Origin: Escherichia coli | GTDB lineage: Bacteria > Pseudomonadota > Gammaproteobacteria > Enterobacterales > Enterobacteriaceae | Reading direction: 5' to 3' (one strand) | NCBI RefSeq assembly: GCF_030384885.1 | Contig: NZ_CP128613.1 | Length of the DNA stretch: 64,000 nucleotides | Part shown: positions 41,206 through 45,786 of the stretch, piece after piece | Layout of the letters: each line of letters begins with the position of its first letter | Position numbering within the stretch: the first letter of the stretch is position 1 | Translations under genes and position numbers: made by a program | Notes under the pieces: generated by a model | Databases searched by the model: none | What the model saw: only the letters and a program-made list of their open reading frames with translations | Told to the model about the DNA's origin: nothing

Positions 41206-42498
41206 TTACCTGTTTTCCCACAATCTCAGCATCGTTTTGTGCTCGTCTGTCAGCACAATCTGCGGGCGTCTGACGCGAATATAGTTAATCGCTTCATCAA
41301 CGGTTTTACAGTGTCCGTAGCATAACAGCCATGCGGCCACCACCAGCGCACTGCGCGATAATCCCAACGCGCAATGGACCAGAATGCTGCCTTGCTCTTT
41401 GCGTAATGTTTCCAGCATCGCCACGGCCTGTCGGAGCTCCCCCTCTTCCGGAACCACCAGATCCAACATCGGTACACAAAAATAGAGTCGATCTTTTGTC
41501 GCGCGTCCGCGAGGGAATTCAAAGGTGACGTCCAGAACTGCATTCTGTGCCGGAATATGTCGTGGAAACGTCCCTAAATAAACACCCGCAGTAATTTCGC
41601 TCACCGGCTCCAGCCGACGACAAAACCAGTGCATCGATATCCACATACCGATGCGCCAGGGCAACGTCAGCCAGTAAACGGCAGGCGGGAGTTTCCCCTG
41701 ACTATCTTTCCCTGTTGTTATCGCGCCAAGCCCACCGTACCCACGGCTAATAATGAGTAGCGATAATACTGGCCAACATAACCAGACTGACCACCGTAAC
41801 TGATTCATCATCATTAGCGTCATCAATACTATGCACGAACACGCGCCTACGACATATGGCAGTGCTATTTTGATTCGACGTTGATCAGGTATCTGGTAGT
41901 TCCAGCGACGGTCGACGGGCACCATCCAGTCAATCAACATACCTACCGCCAGCCCTGTGATGACATCAATAAAATGATGCTGCCAGGTCGTCAGCGTAGA
42001 AATCGCGATGAGTAAAAACCATCCGCCACAGACTTTACGCCACCTCACAGCCAGATGCTGACGATAGTGACACCAAAGTAGCCAGCAGAGAATAATATGC
42101 AGCGAAGGGGACTGGTTATAAGGCAGATCAAACAGTTCAAGTTGCGAAAATAGCCATCCCGTCACCCCACTCACTTCAGGGCGGATAAAACTAAACTTCA
42201 GCGGATAGAGCAAAAAACCGCAACAGGCCATTACCGTTGCCAGAATAAGCCGGTGGACCAGTCGGCGCTGTTCGAATGTCGAGCGACAAACGAACAGCGA
42301 AAATCCATATAAAAGATCCAGACTCCAGTAAGGAACAATAGTCCAGGGAAGAAAAGGGATCGCCGTTTCCCAACCGAATACCTGACTGGGGATATCATGG
42401 TTGTTAAGATCCTGAATCGCGGTGAACTGATTAAGAAATCCATATGTGAAGAAGAAAAACGGAGCCAGCAACAATAACCAGCTAGCTCCTTGTAGCAA
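41206..42498 (-). CDS. ynbD: Membrane-anchored dual-specificity phosphatase YnbD (polytopic N-terminal domain plus CX5R phosphatase domain)
   Basis: ORF 41206-42594; C-terminal [11 protein letters not shown] is a CX5R PTP/DSP active-site loop; N-terminal half is hydrophobic. TTG at 42496-42498 gives the remembered 430 aa and sits 13 nt after the ynbC stop; start uncertain. Confidence 0.75.
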
Positions 42499-42511
42499 TA
42501 CGCTCCGGCGT

Positions 42512-44269
42512 TCAGTGTTCACGACGCACCGCCATCGAAACCGTAAAAATGCCCCACTCATCAATCCGTTGTGTGCATTTATCAAATCCGGCATTACGCA
42601 CGAGCGAATCCATCTCCCCTTGCGAACGCACGCGCATTACCCACGGTTTACCATCTTTATGACTGGTTAACACCCCGGCAATCAGCTCCAGTTGTGGGTG
42701 CCACGGCTGCCCGGTGTAGATGAGAATGCCACCCGGTTCGATGGCATTGGCAAGACCAGCGAGGGAGTTTTTTACCTGCTCGTTTTCGGGAAAAAGCTCA
42801 TACAGGCCAGAGACAATCGCCAACGTAGGCCGCGGAGTTAACGCGCTGAGTTCTGCCGTATTAAACGCATCGCCCTGTTCAAAACGCGCCCGCCCAGACA
42901 TTCCCTTTTGGGCAATCATCTCTTGCCCCTGTGCAACATTTAACTCACTGTAATCACGTAACAAAATATCGCTTACGGCAGGCTCGTTTGCCAGCGCATC
43001 CAGTACATAGCGCCCATGCCCTGCGGCAATGTCAACCACGCGGACGGCTAAACCTTTGGCGTGGAGATCGGCAACGGCTTGTTTAATCAGCATTTGTAAA
43101 TGGGCTTTGCGCTGGCGAATACCGCGCCAGCCAACACCGTTCAGGTAGATTTTGTCGATAAAACGCCCGAATGCGTTACTGCCTTGCGGTTGATTTTGAT
43201 AAACATAATCCAGCGAACTGCCTGAATCAAAGCCGGTGCTCATTCCGAGATGCAGGCCCGCAGATTGCGCCCCGAACAGTTTCATCGCCTTTCGCATAAA
43301 GCGATACGCCAAATCAATCCGCGATAATGGCACGGGTCCACCAGAAAGGAGCCGCCATCGATCCGCAGATGGTCCTGTGCGGTCTTCATGCTGATAATCA
43401 AATTTTTGCGACTTGTTAGCATATAAGCGACTAATAAAGCTTTGCATTTTTTCAAATGCCTGCGCCCTGTTCTCTTCACCCAACGTGTCGTGATAAAAGC
43501 CCGGCAGCAGATGCAGCTCTTTCAGAGGGCTACGTAATCTCTGATAAAAATCAATCTGCGGTTGGCGACGCACCACATAGTCATCGCCCGATATCAGAAG
43601 TTGCGTGGGGAGCGTAATCGCCGCCGCATCGCTAACAATACGTTCAGACGTTTTATAGAGATCGAGCAAGATATTGACGGCAATCGCCCGTGTGATCAGC
43701 GGATCATTATTGAAACTCGCTACCCGTTCCCAATCGTGGGTCAAATAGCGTCCTTTCACATAGGAATTAATAAAAAACAGACCACGCAGACGATGCCATA
43801 ACGCCAGCGCAGGACGTGCCAGCGGCACATACAATTTAACCTTAAAGGCCGGAGAAGCCAGCACCAGCCCGCGAATAGCAGGCGCATAATCATGAACCCA
43901 TGTGGCAACCAGCACTGCGCCGACGCTTTGCGCGATCACAACCACCTCTTCCAGCCCGACCTGGCTGTCGCTGGCAGCAAAACGGACAAATTCATCGACA
44001 TCCTGCACTGAACGCGCAAGAGATGGGCTATAACCACGCGGCCCCGAAGTTTGTCCATGCCCTCGGGCATCCCAGGCATAAAAAGCAGTATCTGGCATCG
44101 CCAGTTCATCAACGATATGTTGTAGACGACCAGAATGTTCATGACCGCGATGAAATAAGACGATGACCTTTTTCACCCCTGGCTGTAAAGCGGGCCAGTG
44201 CCGATAAAACAACGCTGTATTATCACTGGTGGTAAAAAAATGTTCCCCAGGGATGCGTGAATTTTCCAT
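42512..44269 (-). CDS. ynbC: YnbC, alpha/beta-hydrolase (lysophospholipase-like) fused to SAM-dependent methyltransferase-like domain
   Basis: 585-aa ORF; N-terminal alpha/beta hydrolase with nucleophile elbow (AQSVG), C-terminal methyltransferase-like region. Confidence 0.82.
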
Positions 44270-44284
44270 TTTCTCTATTTTCCT

Positions 44285-45181
44285 TCAGTAACAGCAGTAG
44301 CGAATAAAATAAAAAAATACCGGAGCGGTGAAAATTAATGAGTCAATCCTGTCAAGGAGTCCGCCATGTCCTGGTAATAGTTTTCCGCTATCTTTAACAC
44401 CAATATCTCGTTTGATGGCTGACATCACTACATCGCCGCAAAAACCACTAATACCAATTAACAAACCCGCTAATAATGCCTGTAATGTATCTAGCGGTGT
44501 CAGCAACGGTCCAATAATCAGTGACGCAATCATGGTGGTGATTACGCCGCCCATCAGACCTTCCAATGTTTTTCCCGGGCTGACTTTAGGGACCACTTTT
44601 CTTCTGCCGCAGGATTTTCCCCATAAATACTGTGCAATATCGTTTGACTCGGTTAATGCCAAAAGAAATAACACCAGTAACGCCCCGCCCTGGATATTTG
44701 TGGTTGGCAACATTAATAACCAGGCGGCATGACTCAAGGCGAAAACGGTCATTATCCAGCCCCAAAAAATGGCGCTCACGGTATGCAGAAAACCGGAGGG
44801 GTCACCCACAAAAACTCGCCAGGTGGCTAATATCAGAAACCCAGCCAAAGGTATAAATAACAGAAACAGCTCAAAGCAATTAAAACCGATAAGCAAATAG
44901 TTAAGAGGAATAACCCAATATAACCAACGCGGAAAATGTACGAATACAAGCGTACAATATTCTTTCAATGCCATAAAACTTATCAGCGCAAAAAACGTCA
45001 ATGTCATCAAGCGTGGACCTGAAATCACTAGTGAAAAACAAATAACGATGCTCCACCAGGTACGAATACGTAATGTAACTTCATCTCCTTTTCTCTCCGG
45101 TAACCGCCATACCAGAAAACGGTTTATCAGCGTTGCTAAAATTAACAACACGAAAAGTATTGCCAGAGATTTTTCCAGCAT
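44285..45181 (-). CDS. ynbB: YnbB, CDP-diglyceride synthase (CdsA)-family membrane protein
   Basis: 298-aa polytopic ORF with a CdsA-like C-terminal signature region (...[25 protein letters not shown]...). Confidence 0.82.
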   Translation of the reverse strand: [298 protein letters not shown]

Positions 45182-45786
45182 TACTTTTCAGCGCTCATAA
45201 GGAGCACGCTTCGACAACGATTAATCGCAGTCCAGAGAAGCAGAATTGAAGCAATGCTCCATAAAAGATTATTCCATTGCATCCACTGGGGATAAATGGC
45301 AACGGCCAGCCCCCACAAACCAAATATTAACGCACGATCGCTTTTGCCAAATGGACCGGCATAACTGCGAATACCGTTAATCGTCTGCGCGAGTAAACCG
45401 CAAAACTCAGTCAATATGGTGCAAAATAACATGAGTATTACGAGTGATGCGTTACTTTCCGGTAAAAATAAAAACGGTAAATAAAGCGCAATATCGGAAA
45501 TAACATCGCCAGTTTCATTCAAAATCGCCCCCAGACGTGTTTGCTGATTGCACTCACGCGCCATCATGCCATCCAGCGCATTGAGTGCCATACGGACAAA
45601 AAGCACGATGGGCAATAGCAAAAAGAGGATGGGTCGTGCCACCAACATCAACAGCAATCCGATAAGAAGAGAAAGCGCCAGTGCCGCAAGAGTGATGTGA
45701 TTCGCTGTAACGTGGTGCTTATAAAGCCAAAACATCGTCGGCCTTAACAGCGACTGAAAGAGCGGTTTTATCTGGTAGAGCGTCAT
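45181..45786 (-). CDS. ynbA: YnbA, CDP-alcohol phosphatidyltransferase-family membrane protein
   Basis: ORF 45181-45792; CDP-OH phosphatidyltransferase region (ALDGMMARECNQQTRLGAILNETGDVISD); start at MTLYQIKPL gives 201 aa; stop shares 1 nt with the ynbB start. Confidence 0.82.
   Translation of the reverse strand: MTLYQIKPLFQSLLRPTMFWLYKHHVTANHITLAALALSLLIGLLLMLVARPILFLLLPIVLFVRMALNALDGMMARECNQQTRLGAILNETGDVISDIALYLPFLFLPESNASLVILMLFCTILTEFCGLLAQTINGIRSYAGPFGKSDRALIFGLWGLAVAIYPQWMQWNNLLWSIASILLLWTAINRCRSVLLMSAEK

Follow-up and report, generated by a model that had tools for sequence, protein, structure and literature searches.

The ynbABCD genes of Escherichia coli, a four-gene reduced form of a conserved six-gene membrane-lipid cassette

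Which lipid, if any, is made or remodelled by the products of the four ynbABCD genes of Escherichia coli? The first-pass annotation of the 64,000-nt window analysed here, a stretch of E. coli chromosome, had described the genes as a cryptic, self-contained operon acting on an unusual phospholipid or phospho-alcohol head group, with a product that is not established. The last statement holds for the operon, as no paper treating ynbABCD as a unit or naming its product was found in the searched literature, but not for the single proteins, since an activity of YnbB has been published (PMC6362211, PMC7018664) and YnbD has been tested (PMC7413402).

The description of four tightly packed minus-strand genes is borne out by the coordinates (table 1), the junctions and the agreement of all four open reading frames with the RefSeq annotation of a 100%-identical record (NZ_CP027579.1). 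As read from the sequence, ynbA and ynbB overlap by 1 nt at TAATG, the ynbB ATG sharing the ynbA stop codon, and a 15-nt spacer with AAGGA inside separates ynbB from ynbC. The ynbD gene overlaps ynbC by 11 nt if translation starts at GTG, or follows it after a 13-nt spacer if an alternative TTG at 42498 is used (430 aa, GGAG 4 nt upstream). A ribosome-binding site (AAGGA) lies 8 nt 5' of the ynbA ATG. The hairpin past the ynbD stop codon, which has no U-tract, folds as RNA at −23 kcal/mol (z = −3.86; 0 of 200 shuffled sequences fold equally well) and likely marks the end of the transcription unit; consensus scans inside the cluster gave no excess of promoter-like or terminator-like sites over shuffled sequence. 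The reading frames are real genes, and not chance ORFs, with full-length homologues in several phyla, and together they form a genuine, tightly packed cluster of membrane-lipid enzyme genes.

Table 1. Features of the ynb locus, in window positions.
Feature	Position	Strand	Description	Basis
ynbA	45181-45786	minus	201 aa	ORF + RefSeq CDS
ynbB	44285-45181	minus	298 aa	ORF + RefSeq annotation
ynbC	42512-44269	minus	585 aa	ORF + RefSeq annotation
ynbC N-terminal domain	43415-44269	minus	~residues 1-285, alpha/beta hydrolase	PF12146
ynbC C-terminal domain	42512-43450	minus	~residues 274-585, Methyltransf_20	PF12147
ynbD	41206-42522	minus	438 aa, GTG start	ORF + RefSeq annotation
ynbD N-terminal domain	41623-42522	minus	~residues 1-300, 8-helix membrane domain, PAP2 superfamily	
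ynbD C-terminal domain	41206-41610	minus	~residues 305-438, cytoplasmic CX5R phosphatase, P-loop HCALGLSRS	
ydbD-ynbA intergenic region	45787-45956	minus	putative ynbA promoter and ribosome-binding site	sequence
Perfect 11-bp hairpin	41167-41196	.	between the stop codons of the convergent genes ynbD and azoR	sequence

Comparison with other bacteria showed that ynbABCD is the four-gene reduced form of a conserved six-gene membrane-lipid cassette. In about 80 other species the ynb genes are accompanied by genes for a PlsC-type acyltransferase (PF01553 at 3.5e-24) and a small membrane protein, the six products being these two and YnbA to YnbD. Among 80 loci found via YnbC, the latter is present in 79, YnbA in 73, YnbD in 69, YnbB in 64, and the acyltransferase and the small protein in 59 each, while the next commonest neighbour family occurs at no more than 14 and reflects local synteny only; no gene for making a special alcohol (an inositol-phosphate synthase, for instance) accompanies the cassette at these loci. 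With AT for the acyltransferase and S for the small protein, the gene order is A-B-AT-C-D-S at 31 loci and A-C-D-S-AT-B at 15, alongside variants. All six genes are seen in Citrobacter, Pseudomonas and Hymenobacter, and the cassette stays together as a conserved unit across many Proteobacteria as well as in Hymenobacter (Bacteroidota) and a Campylobacter MAG. The Citrobacter cassette occupies the same chromosomal site as in E. coli, between ydbL and azoR, and the alignment of the two shows a clean gap of approximately 630 bp exactly at the Citrobacter acyltransferase gene; nothing similar to the acyltransferase or the small membrane protein was found within the window. Both genes have been lost in place in E. 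coli, and the notion of a self-contained pathway had to be given up for want of these two members. E. whittamii additionally lacks ynbD.

The term ‘cryptic’ proved apt. In a survey of 5426 complete E. coli genomes, operon DNA was found in 4622 (coverage of at least 80% in 4283); the operon is missing in 15% (804 of 5426) and damaged in 6%, with IS1 or IS5 inserted or part of the operon deleted, so that about a fifth of the genomes have missing or broken ynb genes. In some strains azoR directly adjoins pdxI. The dN/dS values (five E. coli strains, simple Nei-Gojobori estimate) are 0.20 for ynbA, 0.33 for ynbB, 0.18 for ynbC and 0.20 for ynbD, and 0.018 and 0.035 for the flanking hrpA and azoR; in Citrobacter they are 0.03–0.05 for ynbB and 0.03–0.06 for ynbC. 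The ynb genes of E. coli are dispensable and under relaxed constraint. They might even be a functionless, decaying relic of the six-gene pathway, in which case the effects of YnbB described below would be artefacts, produced by overexpressing a protein with residual CDP-DAG synthase activity. The disappearance of two conserved cassette genes, and of ynbD from E. whittamii, the absence of or damage to the operon in 21% of genomes, dN/dS values 5–10 times those of flanking genes or Citrobacter orthologues, a mapped promoter requiring BglJ, itself encoded in an operon under H-NS repression, and knockouts without phenotype are all consistent with such decay. However, four intact reading frames remain in 79% of genomes, dN/dS is still well under 1 (0.18–0.33), the proteins of the window keep every family-invariant catalytic residue, YnbB is enzymatically active, and far more frequent frameshifts would be expected of wholly functionless genes. 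By taking into account both sets of observations, complete loss of function seems somewhat unlikely.

YnbB was correctly identified as a CdsA-like cytidylyltransferase: it matches Pfam CTP_transf_1 (PF01148; 8e-69, 232.9 bits), its translation shows the CdsA signature and it produces CDP-DAG in vitro (PMC6362211, PMC7018664). It can be classified as a CdsA paralogue (CDP-diacylglycerol synthase) that shares its signature motif and catalytic C-terminal half with CdsA, whereas the N-terminal half is unrelated; the CdsA equivalog match covers the C-terminal half only (106 bits versus a cut-off of 385). YnbB does not sustain bulk phospholipid synthesis, but its overproduction raises the level of the glycolipid MPIase, and it has been proposed to be a backup CDP-DAG synthase feeding MPIase (PMC6362211, PMC7018664). 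The operon, or at least ynbB, could then serve MPIase synthesis, e.g. in the cold, along a route from phosphatidic acid to CDP-DAG (by YnbB) to GlcNAc-PP-DAG in which the neighbouring genes also take part. Besides the overproduction effect, the rescue of a cdsA knockout by YnbB and yeast Tam41, the reported cold induction of ynbB and the use of a cdsA/ynbB double mutant as the standard MPIase-depletion strain point in this direction (PMC6362211, PMC7018664, PMC11413397, 2026 bioRxiv TAT paper), and the altered, less acidic active site of YnbA, with its translational coupling to YnbB, would fit a nucleophile that is a phosphate and not a hydroxyl. Yet ynbB, which unlike cdsA lies inside a mobile, dispensable cassette, can be deleted without phenotype, MPIase level and growth being unchanged; MPIase is reportedly essential, but the whole operon is missing in the 804 genomes mentioned above; and, of the four cassette families that E. 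coli has, YnbB is the one most often missing, several gene orders being without it. Furthermore, the MPIase scheme as published has no role for the lipase, the methyltransferase, the acyltransferase or the two YnbD domains, and the evidence in print is the work of a single laboratory and deals with YnbB alone. A dedicated MPIase operon is, on these grounds, improbable.

As for YnbA, its assignment to the CDP-alcohol phosphatidyltransferases stands at the family level (CDP-OH_P_transf, PF01066; 3.6e-9, 37.6 bits versus a cut-off of 22), but two of the four signature Asp residues are replaced by Asn, so that this predicted integral membrane protein is a non-canonical member. The signature reads N-x2-D-G-x2-A-R...G-x3-N-x3-D-x3-D in place of D...D...D...D, with Asn at Asp1 and Asp3 in 80 of 81 orthologues, where PIPS, CPT1 and AF2299 carry Asp. 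The corresponding Asp residues of M. tuberculosis PgsA1 are ligands of the dinuclear Mg site (PMC6506517) and, therefore, YnbA may catalyse a different reaction or be weakly active. Among solved structures, M. tuberculosis PIP synthase (6h53, E 4.7e-8) comes closest to it, and the mycobacterial and archaeal PgsA1/PIPS and AIPS are its best sequence relatives, with a similar size. All NCBIfam equivalog cut-offs are, however, missed, those of AIPS (73 bits versus 180; E 2.7e-20) and PIPS (50 versus 170; 2.7e-13) by far, as is that of PgsA (TIGR00560, 28.7 versus 109; 1.6e-6), and V or I is found where M. tuberculosis PgsA1 has the inositol-phosphate-binding R94. PIPS and AIPS use a phosphorylated polyol as the acceptor, hence the need of a downstream phosphatase.

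YnbC is, as first described, an alpha/beta hydrolase fused to a methyltransferase-like domain. Its N-terminal domain (Hydrolase_4, PF12146; 1.3e-67, 228 bits) matches the M. tuberculosis and human monoglyceride lipases at 1e-15 to 1e-10, with Ser (AQSVG), Asp (SGDDYVV) and His (GFYHD) aligning with the MGL catalytic triad in motifs kept in orthologues, and is assigned as an alpha/beta hydrolase resembling monoacylglycerol lipases and lysophospholipases. The C-terminal domain (Methyltransf_20, PF12147; 2e-151, 503.8 bits; SAM motif I, VDIAAGHG) has a class I SAM-dependent methyltransferase fold, the AF2 model (pLDDT 95.5) matching in Foldseek first 3ocj from Bordetella (TM 0.62; uncharacterised) and then small-molecule O-, N- and C-methyltransferases. 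In some species YnbC is fused to YnbA; two such natural proteins were found (P0123 and P0152). A SAM-dependent methyltransferase would suit a methylated amino-alcohol lipid (phosphatidylcholine, N-methyl-PE), with YnbA as choline/ethanolamine phosphotransferase or PC synthase and YnbC methylating the head group, as would weak YnbA matches to eukaryotic CPT1/CEPT1 (E 0.002–0.03) and an older annotation, quoted in PMC3950696, in which YnbA is named as a predicted diacylglycerol cholinephosphotransferase. The CPT matches are, however, far below those to PIP and AIP synthases, a PC/PE route could do without a lipid-phosphate phosphatase, whereas the CX5R domain of YnbD is invariant, and the methyltransferase resembles small-molecule natural-product enzymes, with no specific phospholipid N-methyltransferase match, which leaves very little probability for such a product. 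We know of no report of PC from E. coli.

YnbD had been taken for a membrane-anchored CX5R phosphatase. The phosphatase is there (DSPc, 3e-26), but the ‘anchor’ turns out to be another catalytic domain, a member of the PAP2 superfamily predicted to face the periplasm, the two fused domains being predicted to lie on opposite sides of the membrane. Weak PAP2_3/PAP2 matches are accompanied by the motifs RP (114–115), PSLH (139–142) and S175-x6-H182-x3-D186, the His-His-Asp triad being invariant and the C3 Arg absent. In structure, this domain comes closest to SMSr and Aur1; the sphingomyelin synthase family and yeast Aur1 (IPC synthase) have no detectable sequence-profile similarity to YnbD, which keeps the Arg-Pro of PAP2 motif C1 and has two additional helices besides the fused cytoplasmic phosphatase. 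In the latter C, R and D are invariant, and the fold is like that of PTPMT1 and DUSPs. Of the lipid-directed CX5R phosphatases compared (PTPMT1, PTEN and Ci-VSP), PTPMT1 is the mitochondrial PGP phosphatase, but generic protein DUSPs score at least as well as PTPMT1 and, therefore, the substrate class is not readable from the fold. That PTPMT1 is among the best structural matches, that PgpB is a PAP2 enzyme and that PgsA and YnbA belong to one family could suggest a redundant phosphatidylglycerol branch, with a PgsA-like YnbA and YnbD as PGP or undecaprenyl-pyrophosphate phosphatase. Overexpressed YnbD, however, does not replace the PGP or C55-PP phosphatases in vivo, failing to rescue pgpA pgpB pgpC and C55-PP phosphatase mutants, and cells lacking all four PAP2 proteins are viable (PMC7413402). 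YnbA is also nearer to inositol-phosphate-type synthases than to PgsA, and the lipase-methyltransferase and the acyltransferase would be left unexplained, so that this branch is scarcely credible.

The preferred reading, to which we give an even chance, is that the full cassette would encode a phospholipid head-group pathway of which ynbABCD is the reduced form; every step but the YnbB reaction derives from homology. YnbB would make a local CDP-diacylglycerol pool, as its published activity indicates, and YnbA, whose nearest relatives use polyol phosphates, e.g. inositol-1-phosphate, would move the phosphatidyl group onto a phosphorylated alcohol. The resulting phosphatidyl-alcohol-phosphate would be dephosphorylated by the cytoplasmic CX5R domain of YnbD, as PGP is by PTPMT1 and PIP by PIP phosphatase. 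Once the lipid is in the outer leaflet, the periplasmic His-His-Asp domain would act on its phosphodiester. Judging from fold, motifs and topology, and on the model of sphingomyelin synthases and Aur1, this domain would most likely pass the phospho-alcohol head group on to another acceptor and set diacylglycerol free. To our knowledge, the cassette-bearing genera found here are not sphingolipid producers, and a ceramide acceptor is, therefore, not to be assumed. YnbC and the acyltransferase may finally remove and replace acyl chains and add methyl groups, on the lipid or on its head group. The initially proposed logic of activation, transfer, dephosphorylation and deacylation or methylation remains the best available reading, albeit of a set that E. 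coli no longer has in full: the acyltransferase and small-protein genes are deleted, the four others, with intact catalytic residues, are under relaxed selection and frequently lost as a whole and, therefore, the pathway is probably incomplete in this species, where the sole documented contribution is that of YnbB as an auxiliary CDP-DAG source.

The system to compare is the inositol-lipid cluster BT_1522-BT_1526 of Bacteroides thetaiotaomicron, with its PIP synthase, PIP phosphatase and Aur1 homologue (PMC9246714). The ynb cassette differs in having no inositol-phosphate synthase, in the Asn residues and the missing PgsA1-type Arg of YnbA, and in a phosphatase that is a CX5R dual-specificity domain fused with the Aur1/SMS-like domain in one protein, rather than a PgpA homologue. 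It also brings its own CdsA paralogue, lipase-methyltransferase, acyltransferase and small membrane protein, and sphingolipid synthesis is, as far as we know, not described for the host genera found here. What the two would have in common is a CDP-alcohol transferase (BT_1523) converting CDP-DAG to a phosphorylated phosphatidyl-alcohol, a dedicated phosphatase (BT_1525) taking off the phosphate and an Aur1-type PAP2-superfamily protein (BT_1522) passing the head group to a second lipid (PMC9246714), in both cases encoded by clustered, laterally exchanged genes.

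The window is E. coli chromosomal DNA, 100% identical over the query to strain 2013C-4282 (NZ_CP027579.1), in an orientation opposite to that of K-12. The RefSeq genes ynbA, ynbB, ynbC and ynbD coincide with four minus-strand ORFs, with ydbD upstream and the convergent azoR, then hrpA, downstream. The stop codon of ynbA shares one base with the start codon of ynbB (TAATG), and 15 nt, with AAGGA ahead of ynbC, separate the ynbB stop from the ynbC start. ORFs, RefSeq coding sequences and junctions confirm the four tightly packed genes described in the first-pass annotation, whose domain assignments are also all backed by Pfam, including those of YnbA to PF01066 (CDP-OH_P_transf; 37.6 bits, cut-off 22, profile positions 3-148 of 152) and of YnbB, as a CdsA-type enzyme, to PF01148 (CTP_transf_1; 232.9 bits, cut-off 24). 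Annotations differ on the start of ynbD, the TTG codon of the O157 annotation having the best Shine-Dalgarno sequence (GGAG, 4 nt upstream); the conserved N-terminal Arg-Arg cluster of the predicted protein (TERRS/TERRK) argues for the GTG codon of RefSeq or an earlier start. Beyond the ynbD stop codon the sequence can fold into a perfect 11-bp hairpin (−23 kcal/mol, z = −3.9). Consensus scans of the operon returned 3 internal promoter-like sites against 7.5 in shuffled sequence and 10 internal terminator-like sites against 6.6 ± 2.6, within noise; there is no excess of either, which is weak evidence and points neither way on internal signals. Published activation of the ynbA promoter by BglJ-RcsB does not extend to H-NS at ynbA, and a reading of the operon as H-NS-silenced was dropped. 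A step in G+C content is present inside the operon (table).

Coordinates of the features discussed, by sequence record
Feature	Record	Positions	Strand	Remark
ynbABCD	window	41206-45786	minus	
ynbA and ynbB	window	44285-45786	minus	G+C about 0.41-0.46
ynbC and ynbD	window	41206-44269	minus	G+C 0.50-0.54
ynbD start, RefSeq	window	42522	minus	GTG; 438 aa; 11-nt overlap with ynbC
ynbD start, O157 annotation	window	42498	minus	TTG; 430 aa; 13 nt past the ynbC stop
ynbD start, longest ORF	window	42594	minus	ATG inside ynbC; 462 aa
YnbD residues 216-433	window	41221-41877	minus	match to NF009025
ydbD	window	45957-48263	minus	G+C 0.39-0.44, lowest of the region
hrpA	window	36444-40346		
Segment compared among E. 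coli genomes	window	41000-46000		
E. whittamii cassette	E. whittamii locus	6484-10556		
Neighbourhood of cassette and ydbH-(ynbE)-ydbL	Citrobacter locus	2597-5755		
Plasmid-borne cassette	NZ_CP027341.1	7463-11565		IS66 element after ynbC

The ynb genes and their family labels are already known; what is new, as far as the searchable literature shows, is the recognition of E. coli ynbABCD as a four-gene form, in decay, of a six-gene cassette with a wide distribution. The search for YnbC homologues was filled with near-identical Enterobacterales proteins, and diversity was obtained from a representative library (406 clusters at E 1e-30 or better) and from a genome scan, which yielded 80 loci in Enterobacterales, Orbaceae, Pasteurellaceae, Cardiobacterium, Pseudomonas, Amphritea and many Betaproteobacteria, as well as in a Campylobacter MAG, Hymenobacter (Bacteroidota) and a Planctomycetales MAG. 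Relatives of YnbA, YnbB and YnbD (A, B and D, with C for YnbC) adjoin YnbC almost everywhere in these 80 loci. In Citrobacter, ynbB and ynbC are separated by a 213-aa ORF, and next to ynbD, on its downstream side, is a membrane ORF of 133 aa. The former encodes a PlsC-type acyltransferase (AT; PF01553, 3.5e-24) with HX4D and FPEGTR motifs, nearest to lysophospholipid acyltransferases; for the latter, the small membrane protein (S), profile searches gave no family match. The same two extra genes are found in Pseudomonas, in the order A-C-D-S-AT-B, and the Hymenobacter cassette has the gene order of Citrobacter. A census of ORF families in the 80 loci counted C in 79, A in 73, D in 69, B in 64 and the acyltransferase and the small protein in 59 each, the next commonest neighbour family being found in 14 and corresponding to Enterobacteriaceae synteny (ydbL, ydbH, hrpA, azoR). 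Beyond the six genes, no conserved precursor gene pointing to the identity of the alcohol, for instance an inositol-phosphate synthase, emerged from this census. The order A-B-AT-C-D-S was found in 31 loci and A-C-D-S-AT-B in 15, along with smaller variants, and two different proteins of 807 and 927 aa are natural YnbA-YnbC fusions, also new to the searchable literature. Census, gene orders and fusions thus define a self-contained six-gene cassette, of which A, C and D are the most constant members.

The Citrobacter cassette occupies the chromosomal site of E. coli ynbABCD. On alignment, homology extends to the ynbB stop, is interrupted by a clean gap of ~630 bp exactly at the acyltransferase gene, and is found again from the ynbC ATG; nothing similar to the acyltransferase and small-protein genes was detected anywhere in the 64-kb window. 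The self-contained unit that had been read into the four genes is therefore the six-gene cassette and not the E. coli operon; lacking the acyltransferase and small-protein genes, E. coli probably carries out no more than a part of the proposed pathway. E. whittamii keeps ynbA, ynbB and ynbC, with ynbD missing and azoR directly after ynbC; its YnbA and YnbB are 80-83% identical to the proteins of the window, and its AzoR 99%. A copy of the Citrobacter-type cassette that retains the acyltransferase (A-B-AT-C) is present on three E. coli plasmids (104, 109 and 263 kb); in the one plasmid examined, NZ_CP027341.1, an IS66 element interrupts it after ynbC and leaves a 62-aa stub. The plasmid-borne copies show that the cassette moves on plasmids. 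In Citrobacter and in 13 other Enterobacteriaceae loci the cassette lies directly downstream of ydbH-(ynbE)-ydbL, an operon for an AsmA-like system implicated in the transport of phospholipids to the outer membrane; the adjacency may reflect plain synteny or a functional neighbourhood.

Within E. coli, operon DNA was detected in 4622 of 5426 complete genomes (coverage of 80% or more in 4283), being absent from 804 (15%) and partial in 339 (6%), some of them with IS1 or IS5 insertions. In two operon-less strains azoR abuts pdxI, so that ydbD was lost too. The dN/dS values (Nei-Gojobori) calculated for five E. coli strains were 0.20 for ynbA, 0.33 for ynbB, 0.18 for ynbC and 0.20 for ynbD; in the same strains they were 0.018 for hrpA and 0.035 for azoR, and in Citrobacter pairs with all six genes 0.03-0.05 for ynbB and 0.03-0.06 for ynbC. 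The four reading frames are intact in the strains examined, and all family-invariant residues are present in the proteins of the window. Selection on E. coli ynbABCD is relaxed, not absent; the view that the operon is a pure relic, which gene losses and relaxed selection support, is opposed by the intact frames, the conserved active sites and dN/dS values well below 1. As for ydbD, annotated as a DUF2773 bactofilin, its dN/dS is 0.32, and in APEC 102026 it is reduced to a pseudogene; its behaviour is that of a component of the dispensable ynbABCD segment, yet it is absent beside the cassette in other genera. The window strain itself is unusually distant from most E. coli in this region: only 2 of 5417 genomes match the compared segment at 99% identity or more, most being about 95.7% identical, and its hrpA is only 92.9% identical to that of K-12 at the DNA level (dS 0.35) and 98.8% at the protein level, pointing to a divergent lineage or to recombination in this segment.

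YnbB is the member on which most biochemical work is available. It is a CdsA paralogue, as deduced from a partial match to the CdsA equivalog PRK11624 (residues 160-291, 106 bits against a cut-off of 385) and in agreement with the literature, and the CdsA C-terminal signature S-x-[LIVMF]-K-R-x4-K-D-x-[GSA]-x2-[LIF]-[PG]-x-H-G-G-x2-D-R-x-D is readable in its translation. YnbB was found to make CDP-DAG in vitro and to increase the glycolipid MPIase on overproduction; YnbB plus yeast Tam41 rescue a cdsA knockout, YnbB being insufficient for bulk phospholipid synthesis, and deletion of ynbB leaves growth and MPIase unchanged (PMC6362211, PMC7018664, PMC11448367, PMC11413397). ECA-PG synthesis is independent of ynbB (PMC8609368), and a secondary source mentions its induction by cold. 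The earlier statement that the product of the operon is not established stands for the operon as a unit, on which no paper was found in the searchable literature with ynbABCD, ynbAB or combinations of enzyme names, and needs amending for YnbB, given its published CDP-DAG synthase activity. A dedicated MPIase function for the operon suits YnbB but leaves the other ynb genes unaccounted for. The proposed dedication of YnbB to MPIase also has to be seen in the light of its gene belonging to a cassette that is mobile and dispensable; the absence of the operon from 15% of E. coli genomes would fit poorly with MPIase being essential. One E. coli record contains a YnbB-YnbC fusion of 889 aa (PF01148, hydrolase and methyltransferase), presumably originating from loss of the ynbB stop codon across the 15-nt spacer.

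The canonical CDP-alcohol transferase signature (D1-x2-D2-G-x2-A-R...G-x3-D3-x3-D4) has four Asp residues, which make up the dinuclear metal site and supply the catalytic base. YnbA departs from it (N-A-L-D-G-M-M-A-R...G-A-I-L-N-E-T-G-D), with Asn at D1 and D3 and with D2, G, A, R, G and D4 retained; in alignments to solved structures, Asp is found at both Asn positions in M. tuberculosis PIPS (6h53), CPT1 (8ero) and AF2299 (4o6m). Of 81 YnbA orthologues, from several phyla, 80 share the N/D/N/D pattern, as do both YnbA-YnbC fusion proteins; the Asn/Asn variant of the signature is fixed in the YnbA family, which is new as far as the searchable literature shows. In M. tuberculosis PgsA1 the corresponding two Asp contribute to the dinuclear Mg site, the presumed base is the fourth Asp, and R94, the next residue, has a key role in binding inositol phosphate (PMC6506517). 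In every YnbA lineage D4 is followed by V or I in place of this acceptor-binding Arg. The nearest NCBIfam equivalogs are the archaetidylinositol-phosphate and phosphatidylinositol-phosphate synthases (AIPS, 73 bits against a cut-off of 180; PIPS, 50 against 170), then PgsA (28.7 against 109), with scores far under every cut-off. We read YnbA as a putative divergent transferase, whose relatives use phosphorylated polyols, and as the orthologue of no characterised enzyme. A choline or N-methyl lipid route, in line with the old cholinephosphotransferase label, was rejected, the hits being weak and the phosphatase unexplained.

The C-terminal domain of YnbD, nearest in sequence to DUSPs, has the HCx5R(S/T) P-loop, the general-acid Asp and the DSP fold of PF00782 (DSPc, 92 bits). 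The AF2 model of YnbD as a whole is confident (pLDDT 94.3). The N-terminal part, with sub-threshold scores for PAP2_3 (22.8 against 27 bits) and PAP2 (18.3 against 27.2), consists of eight helices with invariant PSLH and S-x6-H-x3-D motifs and a conserved Arg-Pro. PAP2 phosphatases (PgpB, LpxE, LPP) are recognized by the motifs C1 (K-x6-R-P), C2 (P-S-G-H) and C3 (S-R-x5-H-x3-D), by a profile score above threshold and by phosphatase function. In YnbD, R114-P115 alone is conserved in C1, with the Lys missing, C2 is PSLH, with its His retained, and C3 (S175-V176-x5-H182-x3-D186) is devoid of the Arg; overexpression of YnbD rescued neither PGP-phosphatase nor C55-PP-phosphatase mutants, and E. coli remains viable when all its PAP2 proteins are removed (PMC7413402). 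Motifs, sub-threshold profiles and published complementation thus do not identify a PAP2 lipid phosphate phosphatase. The idea of a duplicate of the PG/PGP branch is contradicted by the same failed complementation. Lys and Arg number about 20 on the inside and 2-3 on the outside, where they lie in the catalytic loop, so that the His-His-Asp site is placed on the periplasmic side and the CX5R domain on the cytoplasmic side. An extracytoplasmic His-His-Asp triad in a PAP2-like helical bundle, along with head-group transfer between lipids, defines transferases of the SMS/Aur1 type. On the basis of motifs, topology and failed complementation, we favour, with a modest structural margin, a phosphodiester-directed transferase or hydrolase over a PgpB-like monoesterase. 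In the membrane-anchored CX5R phosphatase proposed at first, the phosphatase fold is upheld, but the ‘anchor’ carries a second, His-His-Asp site and is likely a catalytic domain; the combination of an SMS/Aur1-like periplasmic domain with a cytoplasmic CX5R phosphatase is new to the searchable literature. Residues 216-433 match the first 230 positions of NF009025 (PRK12361, a 546-aa ‘hypothetical protein’; 4.5e-28), so that the module formed by the last two transmembrane helices and the CX5R domain also occurs in a different, longer architecture.

YnbC begins with an alpha/beta hydrolase domain (PF12146, Hydrolase_4, 228 bits), nearest in sequence to mycobacterial and human monoacylglycerol lipases. 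Its catalytic triad aligns with that of M. tuberculosis MGL (6eic) at Ser (AQSVG/GHSMG), Asp (SGDDYVV/GTDDRLI) and His (GFYHD/GLYHE), and the three motifs are conserved among orthologues. The C-terminal domain (PF12147, Methyltransf_20, 503.8 bits) is predicted with confidence to adopt the class I SAM-dependent methyltransferase fold: the AF2 model (pLDDT 95.5) has a seven-strand core, Foldseek matched it to many SAM methyltransferases at E values of 1e-10 to 1e-12, and SAM motif I (VDIAAGHG) is conserved. Since its structural neighbours are generic small-molecule O-, N- and C-methyltransferases and one uncharacterised Bordetella protein (3ocj), the fold search gives no clue to the substrate. 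A ynbC transposon mutant was reported to accumulate polyphosphate in one strain background and not in the Keio background (PMC2435150); a literature search on PF12147/Methyltransf_20 returned nothing on the operon as a unit.

By taking into account family, fold, motif, topology, fusion and gene linkage, we infer a pathway in which YnbB would provide CDP-DAG, the sole step demonstrated, in the literature; YnbA would convert it into a phosphatidyl-alcohol-phosphate; the CX5R domain of YnbD would remove the phosphate; its periplasmic domain would transfer or cleave the head group; and YnbC with the acyltransferase would carry out deacylation, reacylation and methylation. A tentative extension, which we consider rather unlikely as it stands, is that the full cassette is an undescribed envelope-lipid system, where dedicated CDP-DAG is used by the Asn-variant YnbA to form a new, possibly methylated phosphatidyl-alcohol, and the bifunctional YnbD dephosphorylates in the cytoplasm and donates the head group to another envelope molecule in the periplasm. 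In a sub-variant, the less acidic site of YnbA would take a phosphate nucleophile and build lipids with a pyrophosphate linkage, for instance GlcNAc-PP-DAG, whose formation is the disputed opening step of MPIase synthesis.

The phospholipid metabolism of E. coli is usually regarded as fully mapped, and yet these four genes for lipid enzymes have no assigned product. E. coli is the wrong organism in which to seek it, the intact six-gene pathway being under strong purifying selection in Citrobacter and being found also in Pseudomonas, Pasteurellaceae, many Betaproteobacteria and Hymenobacter; with the complete cassette available in other species, a stalled y-gene problem becomes directly testable. 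Two enzymological oddities are also at hand, namely, the family-wide occurrence of Asn in place of two metal-binding Asp in a CDP-alcohol transferase, and an SMS/Aur1-like domain joined to a CX5R phosphatase on the opposite face of the membrane.

The closest worked example is the inositol-lipid cluster of B. thetaiotaomicron, in which PIP is formed from CDP-DAG by a CDP-alcohol transferase and turned into PI by a phosphatase of its own, after which an Aur1 homologue moves phosphoinositol to ceramide (PMC9246714); each of these steps has an analogue in the ynb cassette. Should the envelope-lipid extension prove correct, the cassette would represent a bacterial equivalent of sphingomyelin or IPC synthase, at work in sphingolipid-free Gram-negatives, with E. 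coli in the midst of losing it.
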